Shown: positions 21,445 through 39,880 of the stretch, piece by piece
Position numbering within the stretch: position 1 is the stretch's first letter
How the letters are laid out: each line of letters opens with the position of its first letter
Source of the DNA: Roseibacillus sp.
GTDB lineage: Bacteria > Verrucomicrobiota > Verrucomicrobiia > Verrucomicrobiales > Akkermansiaceae
Reading direction: 5' to 3'
Length of the DNA stretch: 64,000 nt
Assembly: GCA_051251855.1 (NCBI GenBank)
Contig: JBPOGI010000001.1
Coordinates: 448,001-512,000, forward strand
The notes under the pieces: generated by a model
The model's input: the letters and a program-made list of their open reading frames with translations, nothing else
The model's database searches: none
Told to the model about the DNA's origin: nothing
Made by a program: the position numbers and the translations under genes

Positions 21445-22767
21445 TTAATGGTGAGGAGGAATGGCGGGAATGGTTCCGGCGGCGAGTCCGGTTTGGTATT
21501 CTGACCAAGTCATGGGGGCTTTGCCGGTATCGACTTCCTCCATGGTGATGCAGTCCTCGACTGGGCAGACGAGGGAGCAGAGATTACAGCCGACGCAGTC
21601 TTCTTCGCGAACCTTGGGAACATCTTTGCCGGGGAGACGACCTGGTCCCAGACCGACGCCGAGTTCGGCTGGACTCTTTAGGTCGATGCACTGGTGGGCG
21701 CCGTCTTCGCAGGCGATGTGGCAGAGGTTGCAGCCGATGCATTTATCGTAGTCGATGCGAGCGACGCGGGCGTAGTTGAGATTGAGGTTTTCCCAGCGTT
21801 TGATGCTGGGGAGGGCGCGGCCACGGAGTTCTTCCAAGGACTTCATGCCCTTGGAATCGAGGTAGTCCGAGAGTCCTTCCGTCATCTCGTTAACGATACG
21901 AAATCCCTTGTGCATGACGGCGGTGCAGACTTGGACTGAAGTGGCGCCGAGGGCGATGAATTCGGCGGCGTCTCGCCAAGTGTTGATTCCACCGATGCCG
22001 GAAATGGGGAAATCGCGTCCAATTTGAGAATCATTGGCGATGGTTTCGACCATGTTTAAAGCGATGGGCTTAACCGCGGGTCCGCAGTAGCCGGCGTGGC
22101 TGCTGAAGTTGTCGACATAGGGCTCGGGGCAAAAGCTGTCCAAGTTGACTTGGCTGATAGAATTGATGGTGTTGATCAGGGAAACGGCATCGGCCCCTCC
22201 TCTGACCGCGGCGCGTCCGGGGAGGGCGACATCGGTGATGTTGGGAGTGAGTTTGATGATGACGGGAATCTTAGCCACCTCCTTGCACCAGCCCGTGATG
22301 GCCTCGATGACGTCTGGGTTTTGGCCGACGGCGGATCCCATGCCGCGCTCGCACATGCCGTGGGGGCAGCCAAAATTACATTCGATGGCATCGGCGCCCG
22401 CGTCTTCCGAACGTTTGATGAATTCGTGCCATTGTTCACGAGTTTCGACCATGAGGGAGGCGACGACCACGCGGTCCGGCCAGCGGTCTTTGACCTCGCG
22501 GATCTCGCGAAAGTTAGTTTCTGGCGAGCGGTCACTAATGAGTTCGATATTATTGAACCCGACGATTTTTTGACCATTGAGATGAAGCGCGGAGTAGCGT
22601 GAAGATTGGTTGACGATGGGTTCGCCGATTGTTTTCCAAACGACACCGCCCCAGCCTGCTTCGAATGCGCGGTGGCACTGGTGGGCGGAGTTTCCAGGAG
22701 GGCCCGAGCCGATCCAGAAGGGGTTGGGGGATTTAACGCCCGCGAAATTGATAGATAAGTCTGCCAT
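21445..22767 (-). CDS. preA: NAD-dependent dihydropyrimidine dehydrogenase subunit PreA
   Basis: NFGCPHGMCERGMGSAVGQ, KLTPN, INTINS and two C-terminal 4Fe-4S ferredoxin motifs. Confidence 0.96.
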   Translation of the reverse strand: MADLSINFAGVKSPNPFWIGSGPPGNSAHQCHRAFEAGWGGVVWKTIGEPIVNQSSRYSALHLNGQKIVGFNNIELISDRSPETNFREIREVKDRWPDRVVVASLMVETREQWHEFIKRSEDAGADAIECNFGCPHGMCERGMGSAVGQNPDVIEAITGWCKEVAKIPVIIKLTPNITDVALPGRAAVRGGADAVSLINTINSISQVNLDSFCPEPYVDNFSSHAGYCGPAVKPIALNMVETIANDSQIGRDFPISGIGGINTWRDAAEFIALGATSVQVCTAVMHKGFRIVNEMTEGLSDYLDSKGMKSLEELRGRALPSIKRWENLNLNYARVARIDYDKCIGCNLCHIACEDGAHQCIDLKSPAELGVGLGPGRLPGKDVPKVREEDCVGCNLCSLVCPVEDCITMEEVDTGKAPMTWSEYQTGLAAGTIPAIPPHH

Positions 22768-22784
22768 GGTTTGAGTGGGTGAGA

Positions 22785-24200
22785 TTAGCCCGTGACGCGG
22801 ATGGGATTGTTGAAGCCTGAGCCATGTGCGGGAGTGAGGCCGTAGCGGGTTGTTTGAGTGGGAGGGGAGGATTCTTCCCCGGTGAAAAGAGTGTGGAGGT
22901 GGAGTGCAGCGCGTTTGCCCTCGGCTACGGCATTGACCACTTCGGCCCCTCCATTTGCGGCGTCGCCTCCGGCGTAGATGCCCGGGACGGAGGTTTCTTG
23001 AGTCTCGGGATTGACGGTGATTTTTCCGCCTGCTCCAAAGTCAAGGTCGGGAAGCCAGTCGCTGAGGAGAGATTGCATCTTGTTTTGGCCGAGGGCCTTG
23101 ATGACAAAGTCAGTGGGCTGGGTGAATTCACTGTCTGCGATGGGGGCGGCGTTCTCGTCAGTGCGAACGAGGCGAATCCCGCTGACGTGACCATCGGTCG
23201 ATTCGATGGCAACGGGGCTAACGTTGAAGGTGAATTCGCAGCGCTCGGATTTGGCGAGGGCGTATTCAAAGCGATAGGCGGACATGGCGTCTTCGCCTCT
23301 TCGATAGAGGACGGTCGCTTCTTCGGCACCGAGGCGTTTTGATTGCGAAACGGCGTCGATGGCGGTGTTGCCGCAGCCGAGAACGACGACCTGTTTGCCC
23401 ATGGCTACCTCTTCAAGAGGCTTGGTGTGAATTTCGTCAATGAAGTCAATGGCATCGACCACTTCGGGGAGATCCTCTCCTGGAATATTGAGCTGTCTGC
23501 CTTCGCCCAGTCCGAGGCCAAGGAAAACGGCGTCGTATTCGGATTGAAGCTCGGCGAGGGTGACATCTTTCCCGACCTCGACTCCGCAGCGGAATTCGAC
23601 GCCGAGGTCTTTAATCATTTCGATTTCACTGAGGCTGACCTCAGGCTTCATCTTGTAGTAAGCGATGCCGTAGGTATTGAGTCCACCGGCATGTTCTCGG
23701 CGTTCGTAGATGACGGCGTCGTGTCCTTGTTGGACGAGTTCGGCAGCGCAGCCCAAGCTGGCTGGGCCACCGCCGACGAGGGCGACTTTCTTACCTGATT
23801 TTTGGGTAGGGACTGAGAGAACTTGTTCACCGGTGGCGAGAACAGCATCGGTGGAATACCGTTGTAAGCGGCCAATATCGATGGGCTTTTGATCGCGATC
23901 CTCGAGGACACAGGCACCTTCGCAGAGGACTTTGGTGGGGCAGACGCGGGCGCAGGAATTTCCGAGAATATTTGACTGAAGGATGGTGCGAGCTGAGCCC
24001 TTCACCTGGTCATAGGCGATTTTTTTGATGAAGGAGGGGATGTCGATCCCTGTGGGGCAGGCTTTGATGCACGGGGCATCGTAGCAGTAGAGACAACGGT
24101 TCGCTTCGTTGAGTGCCTGCTGTTTATCGTAGGCGGGTTTGAGCTCGCACATGGAGAGATCGAGTTCCGCTTTTTTGAGGAGAGGCTTGAGGTCAGACAT
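22785..24200 (-). CDS. preT: Dihydropyrimidine dehydrogenase subunit PreT (GltD-like)
   Basis: EANRCLYCYDAPCIKACP, CARVCP, GGGPA and GCGNTAID; adjacent to preA. Confidence 0.93.
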   Translation of the reverse strand: MSDLKPLLKKAELDLSMCELKPAYDKQQALNEANRCLYCYDAPCIKACPTGIDIPSFIKKIAYDQVKGSARTILQSNILGNSCARVCPTKVLCEGACVLEDRDQKPIDIGRLQRYSTDAVLATGEQVLSVPTQKSGKKVALVGGGPASLGCAAELVQQGHDAVIYERREHAGGLNTYGIAYYKMKPEVSLSEIEMIKDLGVEFRCGVEVGKDVTLAELQSEYDAVFLGLGLGEGRQLNIPGEDLPEVVDAIDFIDEIHTKPLEEVAMGKQVVVLGCGNTAIDAVSQSKRLGAEEATVLYRRGEDAMSAYRFEYALAKSERCEFTFNVSPVAIESTDGHVSGIRLVRTDENAAPIADSEFTQPTDFVIKALGQNKMQSLLSDWLPDLDFGAGGKITVNPETQETSVPGIYAGGDAANGGAEVVNAVAEGKRAALHLHTLFTGEESSPPTQTTRYGLTPAHGSGFNNPIRVTG

Positions 24201-24220
24201 GGCTTGATGAGAGGTAGGAG

Positions 24221-25552
24221 TTAGACGGAGGCCAGGGCTTCATCGATAACGGAGACCATGAAGTCGGCGTCTTCCATGGTGAGGCACATGGGAGGTTTGA
24301 TGCGGATGACGTTGCCAAAGAGTCCGCCTTTTCCGAGGAGAAGGCCAAGGTCGCGGCACTTGTTCCAGACCGCCGCGCATTCGGCAGTGGCGGGAGTTTT
24401 GGTGTCGCGGTCGGTAACGAGTTCGATGCCGAGCATGAGGCCTTGGCCGCGCACTTGGCCGATGAGAGAGTGTTTTTCGGCGAGTGCCTCTAGTTTCTCG
24501 ATGAGGTGGCCGCCAATTTTAGCGCTATTGGCTTGTAAGCCATCGTTGTCGATGGCCTCGATGACGGCACGGCCGACGCGGGAGATGAGGGGGTTGCCAC
24601 CGTAGGTGTTGAAGTGGATGTGGGACTTGAGGGAGGCGGCGATTTCGGGAGTGGTGACGACGGCGGCGAGAGGGAAGCCGTTTCCGATTCCTTTAGCCAT
24701 GACCACGATGTCGGGGACCACGCCTTGGCTTTCGAAGCCCCAATAGTGGGTGCCGGTGCGGCCGAAGCCGGATTGAACTTCATCGGCGATGCAAAGACCT
24801 CCGTGGCTACGAACGATGTCGTATGTTTGAGAGAGGTATCCTTCGGGGAAGACGACGGCACCGCCAACACCTTGAATAGACTCCGCGATGAAGCCGGCGA
24901 CTTGACCGGGAGTGGCAAACTCGATGAGCTGCTTGACGTCGTTGGCGTAGTCGGTGGCTTGGTCTTCGTGGCTGGCAAAAGGGCCCCGATAAGGATCGGG
25001 GTTGAGAGCGTGATGAATGCCGAATCCTTGAGGGGTGTTATACTTCCAAGTGCCATGAGCAGTCAGCCCCATGGTGGATTGCGAGCCGCCGTGGTAGCAG
25101 TTGCGCAGGGCGATCATGTCGTAATTGCCGGTGTGAAGGCGGGCCATCAGGAGCGCGAGGTCGTTGGCTTCCGAACCCGAATTGACGAAGTAGCAAACCG
25201 AAAGGTCGCCGGGTAACTTGTCGGCAAGGGCTTTGCCATAAAGGGCAACTTCTTGGTTGGCGTAGATGGTTGTGGTGTGGACGAGGGTGTCTAACTGCTC
25301 GTGGGCTGCCGATAGAATTTCGGGGTGAGAGTGACCGCAACTCACCGTGACGATGCCTCCGAAGGCATCGAGGTAGCGGCGCCCGGTTTCATCGAAAACA
25401 TACTGCATTTTACCCTCCACGATCATGAGGGGCTTTTCGTAGTAGGTGATGAGAGCAGGAGTGAGATGCTCCTCACGGAGACTCATCACTTCATCGAGAG
25501 AGAGTCCGGTGTAAGGTTTGGGGCTGTGGTCGAAGGAAGGAAGTTCAGGCAC
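24221..25552 (-). CDS. Class III PLP aminotransferase, AGXT2/PYD4-like (probable beta-alanine aminotransferase)
   Basis: [31 protein letters not shown] and HFNTYGGNP; operon context. Confidence 0.88.
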
Positions 25553-25582
25553 GGGAAATAAAGTTGGAAGCTGAGAAATAGA

Positions 25583-26452
25583 CTAAGGGCGGGTGAGGTC
25601 GCCGTAGCTATCGGGACGGCGGTCGCGGAAGAACTGCCAAGTGTCGCGCACTTCCTTGATTTCATCGAGATCGAGGTCGGCGACGATGAGTTCGTCTTGG
25701 TCGCGGGAAGCTTCGGCGATGAGTTGGCCTTTGGGATTGCAGAAGTAGGATTGGCCGTAGAACTCGCCGATGCCCCAGGGTTGTTCGGTGCCGACACGGT
25801 TGATGGCTCCAATGAAATAGCCGTTGGCAACGCAGTGGGCAGGCTGCTCGAGTTTCCAAAGATATTCGCTGAGCCCCGCGACAGTGGCGGAGGGGTTGAA
25901 GACGATTTCGGCTCCGTTGAGAGCAAGCGCACGGGCTCCTTCGGGGAAGTGGCGGTCGTAGCAGATGTAGACGCCGATGGTGCCGACCTTGGTTTTGAAA
26001 ACGGGATAGCCCATGTTGCCGGGGCGGAAGTAGAATTTTTCCCAAAAGCCAGGGTGGCAGTGAGGGATGTGATTTTTGCGGTATTTGCCAAGGTAAGTTC
26101 CATCGGCATCAATCACGGAGGCAGTGTTGTAATAGATGCCTTCGACCTCGACCTCATAGATAGGGACGATGAGGACCATCTGATGTTTGGCGGCGAGTTC
26201 ACACATCAGTTGAGTGGTGGGACCATCGGGAATTTGCTCGGTGATGTCGTACCAGCGTGGCTCTTGCTCGGCGCAGAAGTAGGGACCGTAAAAGAGTTCT
26301 TGGAGGCAGAGAACTTGCACTCCTTGTTCAGCGGCCTGCTCGATCATAGCGACATGCTTTTCGATCATCGCATCGCGAATGGTGGAAGGATCTTCGGTTC
26401 CAGAATGGGTGGTGGAGGCTTGGATGAGGCCGGCTTTGACAATGCGAGACAT
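25583..26452 (-). CDS. Nitrilase-family beta-ureidopropionase (beta-alanine synthase)
   Basis: Glu-Lys-Cys triad motifs LQELF, YRKNHIP and ICYDRHFPE; FWEKFYF. Start at MSRIVKAG. Confidence 0.92.
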   Translation of the reverse strand: MSRIVKAGLIQASTTHSGTEDPSTIRDAMIEKHVAMIEQAAEQGVQVLCLQELFYGPYFCAEQEPRWYDITEQIPDGPTTQLMCELAAKHQMVLIVPIYEVEVEGIYYNTASVIDADGTYLGKYRKNHIPHCHPGFWEKFYFRPGNMGYPVFKTKVGTIGVYICYDRHFPEGARALALNGAEIVFNPSATVAGLSEYLWKLEQPAHCVANGYFIGAINRVGTEQPWGIGEFYGQSYFCNPKGQLIAEASRDQDELIVADLDLDEIKEVRDTWQFFRDRRPDSYGDLTRP

Positions 26453-26471
26453 GATGAATTCGGGGAGTTTT

Positions 26472-27857
26472 CTAGTGTTTGGAGAAGGCGTCGATACCGC
26501 GTTCTGCGGAGGTGCCAGGAATGGTGTTATCCAGAATGAGAGCAAGGAACGCGCCAACTGCCATGCCAGAAGATCCGATTGTGGTTAAAATAGCAGCAAG
26601 CCATTGCAGCGACGAGGGAAAAAGGCTCAAAATCATTTCGGCATTCGGTCCAACGTATTCCGGGAGAGAAAGTCCTGCGAAGAGGGCGAATCCGATAATG
26701 AAAAGGTTGCGTGGTGAATTAAGGTCGACAAATTGGAGGTTGGAGAGGCCGACTCCGGTGACCATGGCGAACATTACGCAGTACATTCCACCCACGATGG
26801 GTGACGGAATGGAGGTGAAGAGGGCCCCGAATTTTCCGAAAATCGCGAGCACGAGCATGAGGACGGCTGCCGTCTGGATGACGCGGCGGCTTCCGACACG
26901 GGTGAGACCGATAGCGCCAATATTTTCGGAGTAAGAAGTGGTTCCGTTTCCGGTTCCGAAGATGCCGGCGATGAGGCAGCCGATGCCTTCGAAGCCGATT
27001 CCGCGATTGACGGTTTTGGCGTCAGGAACGGGTGCCTTTGACATCCGCGCAGCGGCGTAGTAGTCGCCAGTGGATTCGATCATGCTGGCGATGTAACCGG
27101 CAAGCATTCCGATGATGGCCGCGGCCCCGAAGGCGGGCATTCCCCATTGGAAAGGAGTGGGAATTCGAAACCAAGGCGCTTCCTTGACGGTGTCGAAGCT
27201 GACGTAGGCGGCGTGTTTGGCATCAAAGAGTTCCGTCCAAGTGCAAATGGTGGCCACGAGCCAAGCGAGGACTAAACCGAGGAGGATAGGGAAGAGGTTG
27301 AAGAGTTGGCGGGCTGATTTGAGGTATTGGCTGAAGAGAATGAGAAGAAGGATGGTGAGGCCCCCAATTCCCCAATGCTGGCCTGCCAGAGGAGCTCCAA
27401 ATTTGAAAAGAGCGAGTCCAATGAGCGCGATGGTGGGTGCGATGGTGACTGGAGTGATAAACTTAAGAGTTTTTCCCATCAAGCCACTGAACCCAATCGC
27501 CATTTCGAAAAAGGCTCCCGCGATGACGGCTCCTTGCACGTGACGCATGCGCATTTCGAAGCCGGCGTCGGCGAGGGATGCCATGCCGCAAATCGCGATA
27601 GCGGGGCCGAGAAAGGAGAAGGTGCCGCCTTGAATGATAGGTAGGCGGGAGCCGAAAGTGGTCTGGAGGAGAGTGCAGATTCCGCTCACCAGAAACATGG
27701 TGCTGATGAGGAGGGCGAGTTCGGCGTTCGAAGCTCCGAGGTGAGATTGCAGCAGGAGGGGAATGGCTACCGTAGAGCCAAACATGGTCAGATAATGCTG
27801 GAAGCCCAGGAGGAGAGACGTTCCGAGAGGGGGCTTGTCTTCAATGGTATACAGCAT
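26472..27857 (-). CDS. NCS2/NAT nucleobase permease (probable uracil/pyrimidine uptake)
   Basis: QH motif (FQHYLTMF) and NAT signature ENIGAIGLTRVGSR; first gene of the operon. Confidence 0.9.
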   Translation of the reverse strand: MLYTIEDKPPLGTSLLLGFQHYLTMFGSTVAIPLLLQSHLGASNAELALLISTMFLVSGICTLLQTTFGSRLPIIQGGTFSFLGPAIAICGMASLADAGFEMRMRHVQGAVIAGAFFEMAIGFSGLMGKTLKFITPVTIAPTIALIGLALFKFGAPLAGQHWGIGGLTILLLILFSQYLKSARQLFNLFPILLGLVLAWLVATICTWTELFDAKHAAYVSFDTVKEAPWFRIPTPFQWGMPAFGAAAIIGMLAGYIASMIESTGDYYAAARMSKAPVPDAKTVNRGIGFEGIGCLIAGIFGTGNGTTSYSENIGAIGLTRVGSRRVIQTAAVLMLVLAIFGKFGALFTSIPSPIVGGMYCVMFAMVTGVGLSNLQFVDLNSPRNLFIIGFALFAGLSLPEYVGPNAEMILSLFPSSLQWLAAILTTIGSSGMAVGAFLALILDNTIPGTSAERGIDAFSKH

Positions 27858-27931
27858 GGCAAACCTGCTTGTTAGCAGATTGAGAGCCAATGTGGGAGCG
27901 GGAAAAGCGAGCTAGGGAATCGTGAGTTGGT

Positions 27932-29336: not shown

Positions 29337-29930
29337 TTAATCAACAGCGTAATTTGCTGTGTTGAGCACTCGGCTCCATTCCATGTCCGTAGTCGCGCCG
29401 GTTGTGCCATTGGCTTTGAGTTCGATGGTTTCAACTTTGATGGCCCCAAATTGCAGAACTGCAGTAAGGAGGGATTGGTCGCCGTCGGTCGCGGTGATGG
29501 AAATATCTTGAAACATGACAAGTTTCATTGAAATTCTGAAGAGGTCAGTACCACCAGCAGGTCCTCCAGAGCTCCTGCGAGCGGTGATGATGGCTTCGTC
29601 CATGTGGTCGCCTTCAACCAGATATTTCAGCATTTGAGGCGTATGTGTGTCTCCAATGTTCGCGGTGATAGTGAGTTCTTTGAAGGTTGCCTTTCCCGCT
29701 CCGCCTCCTGTGGAGATGCTGCCGATGTTGATGTTATTCTCAGCCCCAAACTCGAAGTTAATGAGTTCGAGCGCCTTTTTATCTTTCATGACGTTGTCTA
29801 GAGTGCCGCCATGAATTGGGCCGCTGGCTCCGTCGGTTGGAAAGTGGATGAAGTAATCTAGTTGGGCGTGGGCTGTGAGGGTGAGGAAGACGGTGCTGAG
29901 GATGAGCGTCAATGATGATTTTAGGTGCAT
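29337..29930 (-). CDS. Hcp (type VI secretion tube protein) homologue with an N-terminal Sec signal peptide
   Basis: Full-length Hcp pattern: DYFI, I.G.T.D, LEL..FEFG, GGGAGKATFKELTIT, TP.ML..L..G.H, LQFGAIKVE and a C-terminal W. Leader MHLKSSLTLILSTVFLTLTAHA. Confidence 0.85.
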   Translation of the reverse strand: MHLKSSLTLILSTVFLTLTAHAQLDYFIHFPTDGASGPIHGGTLDNVMKDKKALELINFEFGAENNINIGSISTGGGAGKATFKELTITANIGDTHTPQMLKYLVEGDHMDEAIITARRSSGGPAGGTDLFRISMKLVMFQDISITATDGDQSLLTAVLQFGAIKVETIELKANGTTGATTDMEWSRVLNTANYAVD

Positions 29931-29949: not shown

Positions 29950-31446
29950 TTAGTTCGAGGCGGGCTGAATGTATTCAATGAGGAGTTTTCCGAACCGGGT
30001 GGGGCCGGGTTCGGGATCAGAAAAAAGGAAAACGGAGTTGGCACTGGCTTCCTCATCAGTGAGAAAGGGATTCGAGATAGGGACGGTATCCCAGTCAGTT
30101 AGGTTGGAGGAGAATTGCCCAATGTAGCGAAGAGGGGCATCCCGACGTCCTCCGAAGGCGAGAGAAAGAGGGACGAGGCTTTCGGAGCTGTAAGGGCTGA
30201 GGTCAGGGGCGAAGGAGTAGTCAGCGTTTTCAGCCGCATCACTTTGAGTGGGGTCTTTTCGAAAGGCAAACTCTTCGAGGAGAGTCAGGCCATCGCCGTC
30301 GAGGTCGCTTTGCAAGTCCGCGTTGATGCCGGTGAGTCCGTGCTCATTGATCCAGTCGAGGAGCATGGTATTGGGAATGTGAGAAATTCTGAGTGACACG
30401 GGTTGGCTCTGGACCTCGGTATCAGCACGGGTGAGAAAGAGGTAGCGTGCCCCTGCACGGTAGGTGATGTGGGTTTCCGGTCCGATGGGGAAATCTTCGG
30501 GAATATTGGTGGGGGTCGAGACGGAGCCAAAGCCTTTGGCTTTTTCGGTGTGATAGGTGGAACCTGCTGAGATGGCATCGGGGACCCGTTGAAACTCCGA
30601 GCCTTTCAGAATGTGATTGCTGGAGGAAAGGACGCCGAGCAAGGGATTCGTTTCGCCATTGTCCTTGCGGCCGTTTCCGATCCGCTTGAAGCGGAGAATG
30701 TCGCCTGTCCGGAGGTCTGGAAAGAGTGCTAGGAGGTCGTGGGCATTGCCGTTTGTGAGTGTGGCCTCGTTTGTTTCGGGAGTGCTGTTCCTGACTCCAT
30801 AACCCTCATGGAGGTAGGTCTCTGATGATGAAACCGAGAGCGGTTCGTCTAGGGTGGAAATCGCGGGAAGCTCTGAGAGAGTAGGAGGCGCGGGAGGCTT
30901 GTGTTGAAAAAGGGGATCGGCGATGGCAAAGGTGTTTCCCGGAGAGGCTTCGATCCCAATGATGGCAATCCTAGCCTCGGGGTCGATCATACCAAGGAAG
31001 ACGGGGTTTCCTTGTACTCCTGGACTGCTTCTGCTGGTAGAGAAGAGAAAATGTCCGGTGAAGTCATAGAAGCTAACTATGTAGTCGGCTTGCACTCCTA
31101 AGGAGTGCTCGACTGTGACGGCAAACCCTTGCACGGGACTGGGGGGGTAAATAAGGAGTCGATTGCCTCCGTTGTGCTGGAGAAGCATTCCGGGGGTGAA
31201 ATAGCCAGTGTTTCGGAACTCGGCCGAAGCTGCTTGGGTGGTCACACCGGCGGTGAGTTGATTGGAGTTTGAGAAAGTGGTGTAAGAATCGGCCGCGAGG
31301 GTGGAGCCTGTCGTTAGGGCGACATCTTCCCATGAGATGGTGGCGTCTGCCCTAATCTCGCTCGGTGATGTGACTTCGAAGGGAAGGGCCCAACAGTGAG
31401 TCGCGAGCAGAGTCAGCAAGAAGGCGATGGAAAAGTTAGAAGCCAT
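29950..31446 (-). CDS. Secreted multidomain protein with a C-terminal DxDGDG-containing domain
   Basis: Signal peptide, two beta-rich domains joined by a Pro-rich linker, and W...HGL...SDLDGDGLTLLEEFAF..DP...SSNLTDW C-terminal module. Confidence 0.75.
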   Translation of the reverse strand: MASNFSIAFLLTLLATHCWALPFEVTSPSEIRADATISWEDVALTTGSTLAADSYTTFSNSNQLTAGVTTQAASAEFRNTGYFTPGMLLQHNGGNRLLIYPPSPVQGFAVTVEHSLGVQADYIVSFYDFTGHFLFSTSRSSPGVQGNPVFLGMIDPEARIAIIGIEASPGNTFAIADPLFQHKPPAPPTLSELPAISTLDEPLSVSSSETYLHEGYGVRNSTPETNEATLTNGNAHDLLALFPDLRTGDILRFKRIGNGRKDNGETNPLLGVLSSSNHILKGSEFQRVPDAISAGSTYHTEKAKGFGSVSTPTNIPEDFPIGPETHITYRAGARYLFLTRADTEVQSQPVSLRISHIPNTMLLDWINEHGLTGINADLQSDLDGDGLTLLEEFAFRKDPTQSDAAENADYSFAPDLSPYSSESLVPLSLAFGGRRDAPLRYIGQFSSNLTDWDTVPISNPFLTDEEASANSVFLFSDPEPGPTRFGKLLIEYIQPASN

Positions 31447-33796: not shown

Positions 33797-36700
33797 ATGA
33801 AGGTATATCTGACATTTGTCCTATGGGTTCTTTCCCTTTCTGATATTTGGGCTGCTCGGGAAGGTTTGTCACGAGATGCGCCCGAGATTTACACAGAGCA
33901 ACTCGAGGCCCTTCTTACTCCGGTGGAAGAGGTGTTGGGCTGGGAGAACTCGTTTCTGGAGGGCGAAGATAGTGACGGCACGGTATTGCTTTCAGAGAGA
34001 GTGACCTGGGTCAATGATGATGGACGCTGTGTGGACGTGCTGCATGCCATCTATCAGGCGCATACGGATGCTGGAGGCTCGCAGCTCGAGTCAGATTCGA
34101 TTCGGTTTTCAGCTTTGTTGGAAAAGCCTACTCTGGTGCTTGCTCGTACTCTAAATAAGGATGGGAAATGGATCGAGGTCGGGGAGAAGGAGGCCTTTCT
34201 TCAACGTGGGCGAGGGGATTCTGAGAGTCAGATTTACGATGATAGTGAAGAAGTGGTTCTCATTTTTCCTGAGGTAGAAGCGGGAGCGATCACGCAGTCG
34301 ATTGTGGTTCTGGAAGACAAGTCTGCGCGAGTCGAAGGGGAATACTTTGCGATTGGTTCTTGGGAAGCGGGGTGGCCCTACCTCATGCGACGACGGGTGC
34401 TCGATCTTTCTGAGACGATGGCAGAGCGGCTTCAGGAGAAAGTGGTAGGGCGAGGGGTGCCTCGACGGGTCAGGCTGGATGCTCCCGAGGGTCGCTGGCG
34501 TGCGCAGTGGGAGAAGAAGAACCGAGAGCGTGCCTTCTGGGAACGGTCTCGTGCTCCTTCTACTCAGATAGGTCCGGCGTCCTTCTTGACGACTTGGGAG
34601 AGTTGGGATGATTTGTCCCGCTGGTATTCCAAGAAGTTGGAGAAGAATTCGGGCCTTGGTGCCGAGTTGTTGCAGGAGGTCGAAACGTGGGTAGGGGAAG
34701 AAACCGATAAGGAAAAAATCGCCAATATTCTCTTAGAGAGAGTTTCCTTAGAGATTCGCTACACGGGCTTGGAATTTGGCCACTCGGGCTGGGAGCCTTA
34801 CTCTTGCGATACTGTTTGGAAGCGTAAGTTTGGAGACTGTAAGGATAAGGCAAACCTCCTTGTTCAACTGCTCGGGAAGTATGATATCGAGGCACGATTA
34901 GTCTTGGTGAATACACGCCATGCGGGATTGGTGAATCGGAAGTCACCTAGCTGCTACGAATTCAACCATGCAATCTTGGCGATTAAGGATGGCGACGAAT
35001 GGCAGTTTTGTGACGCAACGATTCCCGGTGCTCGCGTGGGTGAGCTTTCTCCCTCTTCAAGTGATCGAGAAGTCTATTTGGTTGGAGAGTCCGGTGGCGA
35101 ATGGGCTAGGACCCCGAGGGGAGAAGTTCCGCAGTTAGATTATAAATTCGAGACTGAGTTTGATTCTGAAGGACGGCTTTCTGGCTGGTTGGAGCTCCGG
35201 GCAACAGGATTCTATGAGCTCAGCTATCGCGATGATTATCGTGAGCGAAGTCGAATTTCTTCCAAGAGAGCTCTCACAAGTAAGCTTCAGAACTTTTTTG
35301 AGGGGGTCGAGGTTGTTGATGTCGAGTTTCCTGAAGAAGAAGGTGCGTTCGTGATTAAGGCCTTTTTTACAGGACAGCCAGTGGAGCCGGATACACAAGG
35401 GAGAAGGTCACTGCCGTTTCCTACCTCAACCAGTCTCTTTGTTGATTTTGGCGAAGCTGATACACGCGAGACCGATTTCTTTTTGTGGCGTGATAATATC
35501 GATGTTGAGTGTCGAATCTCGCTAGCCGATGGTCTGGCGGTGGAAGGCCTGCCCCAGCCAATTTCACTTTTGAGTGAGGGCTATCGGGTCGAGGCTGGTT
35601 GGCGAATGACCGAATGTGGTTGCCAAGCGGAATTGACTGTTTCTTGCGGAAAGTCACTGCTGACTCCTGATGAATTGTTGGCGGCTGCTCAGGCGAATCG
35701 TGCCTTTTCCAATTGGTCAGAGAGCCCAGTCTTTGTAAAGGAGGGGAAAGCCGGAAAAGTCCAAGAGATGAAAGAGTCGGGACCTGGGATGCCGCTTCTT
35801 TCTTCTGGTGAAGCCCAATTAGAACTCGTTGAGCAATGGTTTCCTTTAGGAGCTGATGCAGCGAGAAGAAGGTCTGCTTTGAGGGACGTCTTGCGGTTCT
35901 TTCCTCAGGACAAAGAGGTCGCTTTTGATGTCAAGCTGCGGCTAGCGTATTTAGATTACTACGAGGATAAGTATCTTGAAGCGGCCCAACAATACGAGGC
36001 TCTCAGTGGGAGCTCGAATGCATCCAAAGAGAATATTGGATTTGCAAAATATATGTTAGCTACGACGCAGAAGGAACTGGCGCAGCATGAAGAGGCTCTG
36101 GGAACGATGAAGGTTCTGGCTGAGCAAAAGGACCTGTCTGAATATCGTCGTGGGTGGTCAGCGGCGTGGGCAGGAGAGTGGCTTCTCCCCGATGAACCAG
36201 GTGAAGCGGAGAGATATTTTCGGATGGCGCTGGCAATTGAAGGGGATTTTCGTGAGGTGGCTCTTCAAGGGATCGTCAGTGCCCTAGTTAAGCGAGAGGA
36301 GCGCTCTAAGTTGGCAAAGGTTCTCATCGAGGAACTGCCAGAACAGGATGAAATCTTGGAAGAGGAATTCGCCCTGGTTCTAGAGACTTCTCAAGGAGCG
36401 AAGGAGGCCAAGGTATTAGAAGAGGCCCTGGTGTTGGCTCTTGAGGAGCTTGAGGAAGATGATTCGCGCAGGACTTTGTTCGAGTCTCATAGAAAGGAAC
36501 TCGCGGATAGCCTAGGGAAGCGCGAGCTTGTCGAAGCTCTGCATAAGAGTCTGAAAACACTTTTGGAGACGGAGAAGCCGGAATATTTTCGGAGGGTCCA
36601 GATTGATGGGGACCTTAAGACTCAAGCTGACTTCGAGAAGGAGATGGGTGAACTCTACAATGTGAAGCACGACCAGTGGCTTGCGCACGCGGCAGAGTAT

Positions 36701-39700
36701 GTTCATCGTTTTGAAGCGAATGAGAGTTTCCCGGAATTTTTGTGGCGACTTCTAGGGTATATTAATTGGTTAGAGAATCCTGGTAATGAGAAGGAGGAGT
36801 TCTTTGAGAAAATGATGCTCATTACTGATCAGATTCCACATTCGGACGGAAACTACTGGGAGAGCCAATTTGTGAAGGCGACTTGGTTGGAGGAGAGAAC
36901 TCGCTATGAGGAGGCGAATGAGGTCTACAGTTTGATGCCTGGGGATCCTGATTTCGATCAGGACTTCAGTTCCAGTGCCGCCAATAGGCAGGGGCTCGTA
37001 TTGGAAAAAATGGGCCGTTGGAGTGAAGCGGTAGTCTGCTTCCGAAGGACAGAGGACGAACGGAGAACAGTGTTGGAGGTTGTGAACCATCTCGTCCGCG
37101 CGGGGGTGCTCTTGGTGCATCTTGATCGAGCAGATGAAGCGCTGGAAGTATTTGGGCTTCTTCGGGATGTTCCAGTTTCGCTCTACGAAGAGGAATATAT
37201 AGAGTCTCAGGTGAAGGAGGCGATCACTCTGAGTGAAAGCCCTGAGGAGAGTAAGAAGTTCTGGGAGCAAACTCGGGGCGCATGGGCCGAGGGCTTAGGG
37301 AAAGGATCTGAGCTCAATCTGCAGGAACCATTCGGGGCTATTATTCTAACTGGAGATGAATTGACGAATTTTGACGAGGAGTTCCCTAAAGCTTTGAAGG
37401 ATAAAGATAAGGAGAAACAAGACGGCATGACTGCGGGGCTCTATGCCGTTGCCAGTATTTTCCCATCGCAAGTGCAGACAATGACCACTCTGGTTTATAC
37501 ATACTTGAAGCCCAATGAACCCCAGGGAGAGATGGGTCCGGAAAAGGCGCTCAAGAAGTTCGCCGAGATTGTTTTGGAAGCGCCAACTGATCAGGCTGTT
37601 CGAGAATTCTGTTTGCGGCTCTGCGGGGGACTCAGTATTGACCTTGGAGAAAAAGAGGAAGCATTCAATTTGCTCGCAAGATGTGTTGATGAGATTAATG
37701 AATCTTCTAGCCGAGAACATCGAGAACGAGCGGTGTATCTTTACCTTCTTTCGGCGCTTAGAGCGGAAAAGAAATCAGAAGATGTCATTGCTCGAGTTAA
37801 TGAGATCACTTCCGAAGAAATGCTTCATATTGGACGTTTCACTTTGGTTCAGAATGCGGCCCAACTCATTAACCAGTCAGAGGGGACAGAAGAAGCCCTC
37901 GATTTCGTGATGAAACAAATGAAGGTCCGGGCGGGAGACGCGACTTCTGAAGTGTTGGAACAGTTGGAGGCATATGCTGCCGAGCTGAAGGAAGGTGAGC
38001 TCGCGAAGCGGGAGATAGAGGAAGCAATGAACGAATGGATTTCCGCGCTTGAGCTGTCCTGGTTTGAGTATGTTGAGCCACGAGAGGTTGGAGATGCGGA
38101 GCTGGATGAGGCTCGCAGTTTCTTTCGAACAGGCGAAACCGATCGACATGATCTAGAGCAATTCAAATTGATGGTGGGCGTCGTTTTGTCGCCAGATGTT
38201 GAGGAGGAGTTGGCGGGCAATGCTTTGGAGCATTGCTTCTTTGCGCAGAAGGTCTGGACCCTTTCCGATAAGTTCTATTTTGAGCGCCTCATCGATGCCG
38301 TCTACGATGAGCGGTTTCCTACCGCCGTTCGGTCGCAACTCTATTTTTCGGCCGTTGTGGGAACTTCGCTCATAGGAGAGGCTCAACTCTTTGAGGTCTT
38401 GAAGGAGAAGCCAGTCTGGGGGGGAGAGGCTACTGCTCAGGGGAAGGAGCTGCTTGAAAATTTCGCTTTGGTAGCCCAAGCGAAGGAAGAAGGAGGAATC
38501 GACCGTGTTTTGGAATGCTTGAGGAAAATTGGTAAGGAAGGGGACTTCTTGGCGATGGATATCACCTTCTTAAGCAATTTTGTGAAGTTTCTCTTTCGAG
38601 AAGGTGAGACCGAGGTGATCGCGAAGCTACTCAAGGAATCAAAGGAATGGAAAGTTGCTGGTGGTGCGAGTGCTGAGATGCAAAAGGAAAGGTTGGAGTG
38701 GAGTCGGTCCTTGAGAAGAGTGGCTCCTTACTTGGATTTGAATGAACAACTGAAAGAACAGTTGTCAGGTTTGTTGGAAGGGTATCAGAAGGATGCACCT
38801 GAGGATTGGTTCGAGCGCTTTGATCTTTATTTGAATGACGACTGGACACTTCAAGAAAAAAGAGGAATTCAAGCTGCTCGTGTTTCGGACGAAGGTTGGA
38901 CGAGGTCTCGACAGGATGGGCGACTTTGGTTTCTAGAGACCGACACATGGGTTGAAGACGAGGAAGGAGAAGTCAGGGAGGAGGAGTTGCTAGAGGCGAT
39001 CAAGACGGTTTTGGAATGGTCTCAGGATTTTGAAGGGGCTTTTCCTTTGTTATCGCTATTGGACCATGAGTTGTCAGAGCCAGCAGAAGCGAAGCTTGCC
39101 GAGATGCTCGAGCCTTTTGACGATCCACGAGAAACGCCAGAGATCTACGCTGTTAAAAGGCTATGGGAGGCTAAGAATCGTGACGAAATTGTGAAGCACA
39201 GGCTTTCAGGCCTTCAGTCTGCGGCAAACGAAACGGCGATTTTTCAGGGGTTTGTAGACTATGTCACTTTGCTTTTTACGATTGAAAACGCCAATGCGAG
39301 AGAGTCCGAGCGTGTCCTTGATGAGATGGATAGCGAACGTCTGCTATCTAGCGAATTGTTACCACTTAGTTTGCATTTATTTCAAAGTCTAGGAACTCGG
39401 GAAGTGGAACTGGAAATCGCAACTGAGCGCGCTGCCGCTGAGATTCATGCAAGTGTTTTGAATTCATGGCAGCATCTAGAGCTATATGAGCTTAAGCAAG
39501 CTTGTGAACTTGCGATTATGAGTGATGCTGGAAAGCAGCTTCCAGTTGAATGGGCTGAATCAAATCGAAAGAGGATCCCAGAGGATGAAGATAGGCTGAC
39601 GTTCGAGGTTTTGTATGCTCTTGCCAAAAAGAACTGGAGTGACTTAGAGCAGTTTTGTTCCGAGTTGGATAAACTGAACTCTGGTTTCTATTCAACCGCT

Positions 39701-39880
39701 CCTCTTGGGCTCGCTCTTTTTCATCAAGAAAAGTATCAGGAATCATTGGAGCCTTTGCAGGCCGCAATCGATATGAAGTTCTTGGACTGGGAGTTAGCTT
39801 TGGACTTGGAGCCTTTGTTGATTGAAGCAAAGAAGAAAAGTAAAGAGCAGCAGGAGATCTTGGAGTCTGTGACTCCCTAA
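33797..39880 (+). CDS. Large exported DUF3857/transglutaminase-like protein with TPR-like repeats
   Basis: 2027 aa; signal peptide; IRY.GLEFG, GDCKDKA, FNHAI and CDAT (Cys-His-Asp triad); helical-repeat C-terminal two-thirds. Confidence 0.85.
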   Translation: MKVYLTFVLWVLSLSDIWAAREGLSRDAPEIYTEQLEALLTPVEEVLGWENSFLEGEDSDGTVLLSERVTWVNDDGRCVDVLHAIYQAHTDAGGSQLESDSIRFSALLEKPTLVLARTLNKDGKWIEVGEKEAFLQRGRGDSESQIYDDSEEVVLIFPEVEAGAITQSIVVLEDKSARVEGEYFAIGSWEAGWPYLMRRRVLDLSETMAERLQEKVVGRGVPRRVRLDAPEGRWRAQWEKKNRERAFWERSRAPSTQIGPASFLTTWESWDDLSRWYSKKLEKNSGLGAELLQEVETWVGEETDKEKIANILLERVSLEIRYTGLEFGHSGWEPYSCDTVWKRKFGDCKDKANLLVQLLGKYDIEARLVLVNTRHAGLVNRKSPSCYEFNHAILAIKDGDEWQFCDATIPGARVGELSPSSSDREVYLVGESGGEWARTPRGEVPQLDYKFETEFDSEGRLSGWLELRATGFYELSYRDDYRERSRISSKRALTSKLQNFFEGVEVVDVEFPEEEGAFVIKAFFTGQPVEPDTQGRRSLPFPTSTSLFVDFGEADTRETDFFLWRDNIDVECRISLADGLAVEGLPQPISLLSEGYRVEAGWRMTECGCQAELTVSCGKSLLTPDELLAAAQANRAFSNWSESPVFVKEGKAGKVQEMKESGPGMPLLSSGEAQLELVEQWFPLGADAARRRSALRDVLRFFPQDKEVAFDVKLRLAYLDYYEDKYLEAAQQYEALSGSSNASKENIGFAKYMLATTQKELAQHEEALGTMKVLAEQKDLSEYRRGWSAAWAGEWLLPDEPGEAERYFRMALAIEGDFREVALQGIVSALVKREERSKLAKVLIEELPEQDEILEEEFALVLETSQGAKEAKVLEEALVLALEELEEDDSRRTLFESHRKELADSLGKRELVEALHKSLKTLLETEKPEYFRRVQIDGDLKTQADFEKEMGELYNVKHDQWLAHAAEYVHRFEANESFPEFLWRLLGYINWLENPGNEKEEFFEKMMLITDQIPHSDGNYWESQFVKATWLEERTRYEEANEVYSLMPGDPDFDQDFSSSAANRQGLVLEKMGRWSEAVVCFRRTEDERRTVLEVVNHLVRAGVLLVHLDRADEALEVFGLLRDVPVSLYEEEYIESQVKEAITLSESPEESKKFWEQTRGAWAEGLGKGSELNLQEPFGAIILTGDELTNFDEEFPKALKDKDKEKQDGMTAGLYAVASIFPSQVQTMTTLVYTYLKPNEPQGEMGPEKALKKFAEIVLEAPTDQAVREFCLRLCGGLSIDLGEKEEAFNLLARCVDEINESSSREHRERAVYLYLLSALRAEKKSEDVIARVNEITSEEMLHIGRFTLVQNAAQLINQSEGTEEALDFVMKQMKVRAGDATSEVLEQLEAYAAELKEGELAKREIEEAMNEWISALELSWFEYVEPREVGDAELDEARSFFRTGETDRHDLEQFKLMVGVVLSPDVEEELAGNALEHCFFAQKVWTLSDKFYFERLIDAVYDERFPTAVRSQLYFSAVVGTSLIGEAQLFEVLKEKPVWGGEATAQGKELLENFALVAQAKEEGGIDRVLECLRKIGKEGDFLAMDITFLSNFVKFLFREGETEVIAKLLKESKEWKVAGGASAEMQKERLEWSRSLRRVAPYLDLNEQLKEQLSGLLEGYQKDAPEDWFERFDLYLNDDWTLQEKRGIQAARVSDEGWTRSRQDGRLWFLETDTWVEDEEGEVREEELLEAIKTVLEWSQDFEGAFPLLSLLDHELSEPAEAKLAEMLEPFDDPRETPEIYAVKRLWEAKNRDEIVKHRLSGLQSAANETAIFQGFVDYVTLLFTIENANARESERVLDEMDSERLLSSELLPLSLHLFQSLGTREVELEIATERAAAEIHASVLNSWQHLELYELKQACELAIMSDAGKQLPVEWAESNRKRIPEDEDRLTFEVLYALAKKNWSDLEQFCSELDKLNSGFYSTAPLGLALFHQEKYQESLEPLQAAIDMKFLDWELALDLEPLLIEAKKKSKEQQEILESVTP

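Follow-up and report, generated by a model that had tools for sequence, protein, structure and literature searches.

Annotation and secretion assays use Hcp (TssD), the tube protein of the T6SS, as a T6SS marker. One Hcp-like protein with a role outside the T6SS, HilE of Salmonella, is a cytoplasmic regulator that has no leader. Within the T6SS, sections of PMC4650826 describe Hcp as a chaperone and receptor for effectors, which stabilises its cargo and has a 40-Å lumen, and report that mutations in loop L2,3 of another Hcp stop the stacking of rings. Hcp can also be a fusion module, as in the Hcp-ET proteins treated in the available portions of PMC8262886, which exit through the T6SS with toxins. 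The same portions show that IMG contains Hcp genes with a PEP-CTERM sorting signal, which were removed before analysis, so exported Hcp fusions were noticed there but not studied. The accessible part of PMC3482391 mentions Hcp only within the T6SS, and the visible text of a metaproteomic preprint (10.1101/2024.11.06.622250) reports T6SS_HCP proteins in the extracellular fraction and does not tie them to leaders. In a literature search that lay mostly outside subscription journals, no account of Hcps with leaders or with six domains came to light, although supplementary gene tables might list such proteins.

We analysed a 64,000-nucleotide stretch of Roseibacillus sp. DNA (the window), which encodes an Hcp homologue with a predicted signal peptide:

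29337..29930, reverse strand: predicted exported Hcp, a stand-alone subunit of 197 amino acids (P0001), called from PF05638, PDB sequence matches and fold

29865..29930, reverse strand: predicted Sec/SPI-type signal peptide of the Hcp, residues 1–22, with a predicted cut after Ala-His-Ala, called from anatomy, start-codon census and a heuristic pass

29685..29747, reverse strand: full-length β2–β3 loop of the Hcp, residues 62–82, placed by alignment

The original prediction, an Hcp homologue, is borne out at the levels of sequence and fold. The protein matches PF05638 over residues 49–167 (47.7 bits against a cut-off of 23.5; E = 2.4e-12), which places it in the Hcp/TssD family, and phmmer aligns it with the PDB Hcps 8yun and 4tv4 (E = 2e-14) and PA0085, 1y12 (E = 8e-8). 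Its AlphaFold2 model (pLDDT 86.5) has the Hcp β-barrel fold with one helix, and the top Foldseek matches are all Hcp crystal structures (4w64, 4tv4 and 1y12; target TM 0.84–0.92). With the profile for TssD sensu stricto, TIGR03344, it scores 14.7 bits, under the cut-off of 58.9. Fold, mature length and stacking loop are common to this protein and the T6SS tube Hcps (Pseudomonas aeruginosa Hcp1 1y12, Acinetobacter baumannii 4w64 and those of Rhodobacterales), whereas the signal peptide, the absence of Cys (0 in the whole protein) and changes at the Lys90 and Glu155 positions set it apart. The gene has a GC content of 0.50, compared with 0.55 for the window.

Residues 1–22 have the anatomy of a Sec/SPI leader, as had been proposed: a basic n-region with Lys4, a 10-residue hydrophobic core (mean hydropathy 2.45) and small residues at −3 and −1 in the Ala-His-Ala that precedes Gln23, with neither a lipobox Cys nor a twin arginine. 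The call combines this anatomy with a heuristic of our own, which the leader passes. An in-frame stop lies three codons 5′ of the ATG, and ATG, GTG or TTG occur among the first 60 codons at positions 1, 7 and 48 only; the ATC at codon 28 falls within the first strand. Because none of the three common start codons stands at the start of the domain, no whole leaderless Hcp could be made from a common start, and a true start downstream of the leader was not found.

The whole assembly (G000), which comprises 4.96 Mb in 13 contigs and is 95.4% complete, has 0 matches to any of the profiles for VipB, TssF, VgrG (TIGR01646), phage sheath, TssK, gp5 OB-fold, VipA, DotU/TssL, gp25 or PAAR, and every marker control was positive in Escherichia coli; TssJ and TssM lie outside the marker set. 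By the markers searched, the assembly therefore lacks the sheath, baseplate, spike and membrane-complex genes that would accompany a T6SS tube component. PF04984 and PF04965, which would point to an extracellular contractile injection system or tailocin, also had 0 matches in G000. There are no vgrG, effector or immunity neighbours, and no VgrG in G000, as an orphan hcp–vgrG effector island would have. The window protein thus belongs to the Hcp family but does not qualify as a T6SS tube component, and the claim that it has no T6SS genes nearby and is independent of contractile injection stands for these markers and this assembly. The label ‘orphan’, given to it for the same reason, survives only with respect to the T6SS: a conserved partner gene adjoins it, and G000 holds two more leader-bearing Hcps.

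Besides the partner, the Pfam scan shows a 2-hydroxyacid dehydrogenase and an FAD monooxygenase around the Hcp. A promoter and terminator scan found 0 promoter-like sites and 3 terminator-like sites, on the opposite strand and at chance level. Elsewhere in the window, positions 21445–27890 (reverse strand) hold what we take from the translations to be an ordinary pyrimidine catabolism cluster (dihydropyrimidine dehydrogenase subunits, an aminotransferase, a carbon–nitrogen hydrolase and a nucleobase permease), and positions 33797–39880 (forward strand) encode a 2,027-amino-acid protein that is presumably DUF3857/transglutaminase-like and TPR-rich.

The partner gene lies directly upstream of the Hcp:

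29950..31446, reverse strand: conserved partner gene (P0121), 498 amino acids, ending 19 nucleotides before the Hcp start, identified from homologues and conserved pairing

31387..31446, reverse strand: predicted partner signal peptide, about residues 1–20, from the hydrophobic N terminus here and in homologues and a low-confidence model helix

30886..31359, reverse strand: partner domain 1, a CBM-type jelly roll, residues 30–187, from the model and structural matches

30373..30879, reverse strand: partner domain 2, conserved and β-rich, about residues 190–358, from model secondary structure and invariant columns

29953..30369, reverse strand: partner tail, about residues 360–498, with a DxDGDG (TSP3-like) motif and a β C-terminal domain, from hhalign

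No Pfam or NCBIfam profile matches the partner, which has 29 near-full-length homologues under names that include Luteolibacter, Coraliomargarita and Cerasicoccus. In its model (pLDDT 88.8), domain 1 superposes on 8x8h (VIA-align; Z 12.1, rmsd 2.7, 135 residues aligned) and on the DUF4465 protein 4jqr (Z 10.8), and Foldseek matches it to CBM22 and BtuJ1. Domain 1 therefore has the jelly-roll fold of the CBM22/DUF4465 (BtuJ) surface binding proteins (Z 10.7–12.1), but at 8–13% identity only, and a shared fold shows no function. The only match to cover domain 2 is a loose one to tandem CBMs (rmsd 11.9), and a search of the ESM Atlas with residues 22–365 reached a best value of 0.75 and gave no lead. 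An HMM comparison (E = 1.4) and hhalign (probability 0.4) ruled out that the partner is a hidden Hcp, and the structural matches listed for it include neither Hcp nor tail-tube chains.

The partner ends in the same tail that is found in fusions of Hcp to a tail (hhalign probability 95.8, E = 6.7e-9). At least 63 open reading frames of G000 end in such a tail, which makes it a general module. From its position in many secreted proteins, we infer a role in the sorting or anchoring of proteins at the cell surface, at the outer membrane. The partner has no match to PF07589 and ends in this β tail, and so does not resemble a PEP-CTERM/exosortase substrate; we found no paper on the tail in the literature searched.

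In 7 of 7 other loci, drawn from several families, the partner is followed by a leader-bearing Hcp as the next gene. These loci come from two other genomes of a 401-genome phylum sample, three genomes of a 401-genome family sample and two metagenome contigs; one of the Hcps is weak (L227, local E = 0.0037) and one of the partners is truncated. Three metagenome loci (L154–L156) in which only 30 tail residues matched are left out of this count, and L153 consists of the last 121 residues of the partner only. The paired Hcps share a signature in which the conserved Lys90 and Glu155 positions carry apolar residues: Glu155 is absent in 7 of 7, the Lys90 position is likewise apolar, and both changes occur again in three loci found later. 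Partner and Hcp are best read as one unit, which is patchy in distribution (4 of 401 family genomes).

This recurrence bears on whether the window protein could be an ordinary cytoplasmic Hcp with a T6SS that the assembly missed, or a captured gene that is in decay and has a leader by accident. The incompleteness of G000, the two components outside the marker set and the lower GC content would allow for this, as would the closest relative on record, P0003 (54% identical), which is listed as 172 amino acids without a leader; a mis-called start is no more than a guess. However, ten marker searches were negative, no start codon stands at the domain, the fold is intact and the leader and partner recur together in 7 other loci of several families. 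We disfavour this explanation and regard it as very improbable.

The original prediction had also implied a one-off domestication, which our survey contradicts: the window gene represents one layout of an exported class that spans the phylum. A co-directional tail-bearing neighbour accompanies 42 of 44 stand-alone exported Hcps, which belong to several families and include kin that are not independent. In the first layout (32 of 44), the next gene encodes a second exported Hcp that is fused to the tail (31 pairs and one diverged case), and we read this fusion as a built-in anchor subunit. TSP3_bac is present in 12 of the 18 tail-fused Hcps that were scanned, and Big_9 with cadherin repeats in 2. 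The second layout (8 of 44) has an upstream gene for a leader, a 110-residue domain and the tail, and the layout of the window accounts for 2 of 44. One of the remaining Hcps is at a contig end, and one (L213) lacks a tail-bearing neighbour. Hcp is a fusion module in this class, as it is in Hcp-ET, although the window Hcp itself has no extension and its class uses a tail other than PEP-CTERM. Longer fused forms of P0001 itself are limited to 2 matches, which is weak evidence.

Several loci of the class have features of their own. The second-layout loci (L046, L049, L051, L052, L053, L056, L060 and L212) place the Hcp 3–4 nucleotides after the partner or overlapping it; their Hcps form a separate clade (99 SH-aLRT), and the approximately 110-amino-acid partner domain is unnamed. 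The upstream partners of this layout show no likeness to the N-terminal domains of the window partner (hhalign probability 0.5). A PEP-CTERM-like gene occurs 460 nucleotides upstream of the exported Hcp at L213:5758-7504. P0155 (476 amino acids) joins a leader and collagen repeats to an Hcp domain of the subgroup of the window protein. The two further Hcp genes of G000 lie in tandem on contig C10, each with a leader and the second fused to a DxDGDG-containing tail (G000:C10:125880-128726; L004:9881-12724): a leader–Hcp of 170 amino acids and a leader–Hcp–tail of 292 amino acids are followed by a coupled DUF7059–MTS–DUF7782 methyltransferase. The same methyltransferase is found 3′ of the Hcp pair in 8 Pfam-confirmed loci (L004, L037, L040, L045, L048, L050, L054 and L055), whose free subunits have a common leader motif resembling S-[RK]-[TS]-L-A-L-x-x-P. 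This motif, together with the coupling, hints at a leader-directed modification before export.

Across relatives, leaders and T6SS loci separate. One fixed heuristic was passed by 0 of 26 T6SS-type Hcps and by 72 of 78 other Hcps; the labels were set after the N termini had been seen, but, independently of them, 24 of the 26 lie in a VipB locus by coordinates and the other two in a VipB-positive genome. One of the 6 failures among the 78 looks broken: it is a free subunit (L039:7472-8020) with a leader that is seemingly out of frame or broken and an intact partner. In a family sample of 151 genomes, Hcp occurs in 26 and VipB in 7, and each of these 7 has a leaderless Hcp adjoining VipB; the other 19 of the 26 Hcp-positive genomes have no VipB match. 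The phylum sample has Hcp in 30 of 401 genomes, and VipB in 13 of the 25 that were tested further. Three genomes contain both leaderless T6SS-type and exported Hcps.

Among the matches listed, the closest relatives of the window Hcp are Hcps of marine Alphaproteobacteria, which are 170–180 residues long and about 50% identical over the mature part only. The leader is absent in 80 of 80 of the closest alphaproteobacterial loci (one at a contig end), and the 3 of these 80 that were checked by Pfam are all in T6SS clusters. Whereas those three have a tssABC/E/F/G/clpV context, the window Hcp is paired with a tail-bearing secreted protein. Only 2 of the other 119 matches listed (P0002 and P0113) bear leaders. 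Of 117 positions conserved in the T6SS Hcps of Rhodobacterales, the window Hcp keeps 74, and several strand residues differ. The Rhodobacterales group, its closest cytoplasmic relatives, has a mean of 2.5 Cys per domain compared with 0.14 in the type to which the window protein belongs, a scarcity that would be expected for export.

A single clade of exported Hcps set against the leaderless ones is rejected (AU P = 2.7e-5; P = 0.0012 without L184 and P0003), which implies more than one gain or loss of the leader. A single clade for the type of the window Hcp is not rejected (AU P = 0.72). These trees are quick and unrooted, and so give no direction of transfer; two partial L217 Hcps were left out of the trees and counts. 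The quick trees had hinted that the window Hcp was a separate recent capture from Rhodobacterales, a claim that we dropped because trees uniting the window type, or uniting Rhodobacterales, score better.

Such close kinship with T6SS Hcps would suit a defensive decoy, in which exported rings in the periplasm or at the surface catch Hcp-carried effectors, or spike or tail parts, from T6SS-bearing neighbours or phages. The mature protein resembles working marine T6SS Hcps in about half of its residues and in the 74 conserved positions, exported Hcps are not united in one clade, and the unit has the patchy distribution that is common among defence genes; that Hcp is an effector chaperone and receptor, according to sections of PMC4650826, also fits. 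However, Pfam and the flanking loci reveal no immunity, toxin or defence gene beside the Hcp, and several strand residues have departed from the T6SS relatives. Unrooted trees in which one clade for the window type is not rejected also leave repeated recent capture unsupported, and a decoy does not explain the lectin-like partner. We consider it improbable.

Evidence on the working form of the exported protein comes from proteins that carry several Hcp domains in one chain. A profile of 45 exported Hcps was searched against 1.84 billion representatives, and the matches listed are mostly multi-Hcp chains. Exactly six Hcp domains are present in 95 of 152 proteins (150 listed and two others), five in 13 and seven in 3; the list is ranked by summed score, which favours multi-domain proteins. 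The count of six agrees with Pfam in 18 of 19 proteins checked. The multi-Hcp chains are often fused to Ig, cadherin, PKD, dockerin or RTX repeats or to planctomycete-export motifs (P0157–P0305). An RTX-type or planctomycete-type export motif is present in 56 of the 95 six-domain chains, and Cys is nearly absent. The peak at six suggests a single closed ring on a stalk as the extracellular unit and, judging from these sequences, one ring is probably the working unit of exported Hcp. Five further proteins (P0218, P0226, P0250, P0254 and P0289) combine a leader with two or three Hcp domains in tandem, both numbers being divisors of six.

A competing possibility is an extracellular tube or pilus-like filament, in which Hcp is the major subunit of a long, 8-nm hollow tube and the tail-bearing partner its base or tip. 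A major subunit with an anchored minor subunit is the usual layout of a pilus and counts in favour of a tube. The β2–β3 loop of the window Hcp, which by its position would be the ring-stacking loop, has all 28 columns, as in all 12 Rhodobacterales T6SS Hcps, and is nearly identical to theirs in sequence; mutants in L2,3 fail to stack elsewhere, as parts of PMC4650826 report. Of 31 pairs, 24 also show a longer loop in the free subunit than in its tail-fused counterpart (2 show the reverse and 5 are ties; kin not independent), as would be expected if the former built the shaft and the latter the end ring. On the other hand, among the 34 free subunits of the paired type, 8 have a short loop, and the six-domain single chains keep it too (median 25–26), so the loop is no proof of long stacks. 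With no sheath, spike or assembly factor encoded beside the Hcp, we think that a long tube is unlikely, if clearly worth considering.

The ring might instead stay in the periplasm as a chaperone or carrier and accompany the partner, or other proteins with the tail, on their way to the outer membrane. Canonical Hcp stabilises cargo (sections of PMC4650826), and the free Hcp, which is itself tailless, has a gene tightly coupled to that of one secreted protein. This idea is hard to reconcile with a 477-residue, three-domain partner that far exceeds a 40-Å lumen, with partners that are themselves Hcp fusions in most loci and with at least 63 tail-bearing proteins for three Hcps in G000. The six-domain chains on adhesin-like stalks also argue against it, and we hold it to be highly doubtful.

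We tentatively prefer, at somewhat less than even confidence, a surface-held Hcp ring with a tail-bearing, lectin-like partner, serving adhesion or ligand capture. The computed results behind this reading are the Hcp fold and the leader, the lack of T6SS markers, the conserved pairing and the tail in common with Hcp fusions. Both products would cross the inner membrane by Sec, and from their predicted leaders Hcp and partner are, in all likelihood, exported. The mature Hcp, beginning at Gln23, would then assemble outside the cytoplasm into the usual six-subunit ring, single or in a short stack, with no sheath, spike or baseplate; homology makes a ring very likely, although, to judge from the divergence of L227, some members may no longer form rings. 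The partner would hold the ring at the cell surface through its tail and add a carbohydrate-binding-type domain. Physical docking of the ring on the partner, with display at the surface, has in our judgement slightly the better of an even chance. A complex prediction with three mature Hcp copies and the mature partner, in a run whose controls were not folded, reached a best score of 0.27 against a mark of 0.32 and counts neither for nor against docking. The result would be a surface-displayed binding platform for adhesion or ligand capture.

Some observations sit uneasily with a ring held at the surface. The partner in the window has no Hcp domain, so its hold on the ring is unexplained. The leaderless listing of P0003 and the lack of a tail-bearing neighbour at L213 also count against it.

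Taken more broadly, we find it on balance probable that a T6SS tube protein has become a sheath-free extracellular structure: a ring or tube of Sec-exported Hcp, fixed to the cell through a tail-bearing anchor subunit at its surface, with at least three gene layouts in the phylum and a parallel elsewhere in six-Hcp single chains on adhesin stalks. At its boldest, the proposal would make the exported ring a hollow surface filament of a new class, or else a decoy on which incoming T6SS cargo is trapped. HilE and the window Hcp would have a role outside the T6SS in common, but the latter is, by its sequence, predicted to be exported and has a surface-type partner. The pairing of an exported Hcp with such a partner suggests that the Hcp ring has another, so far undescribed, role beyond the cytoplasm.

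The class is widespread without a T6SS, as the 19 of 26 Hcp-positive family-sample genomes with no VipB match indicate, so many annotations based on Hcp would mislead. The two-gene system is small and offers a directly testable case of the role of an Hcp ring without sheath and spike, as well as a handle on a common and unexplained C-terminal tail of secreted proteins in the phylum. Natural exported rings would also be useful for protein nanotube work. If our reading is true, these bacteria would be a clear example of the tube fold of phage tails being put to new use in a structure of the cell surface.
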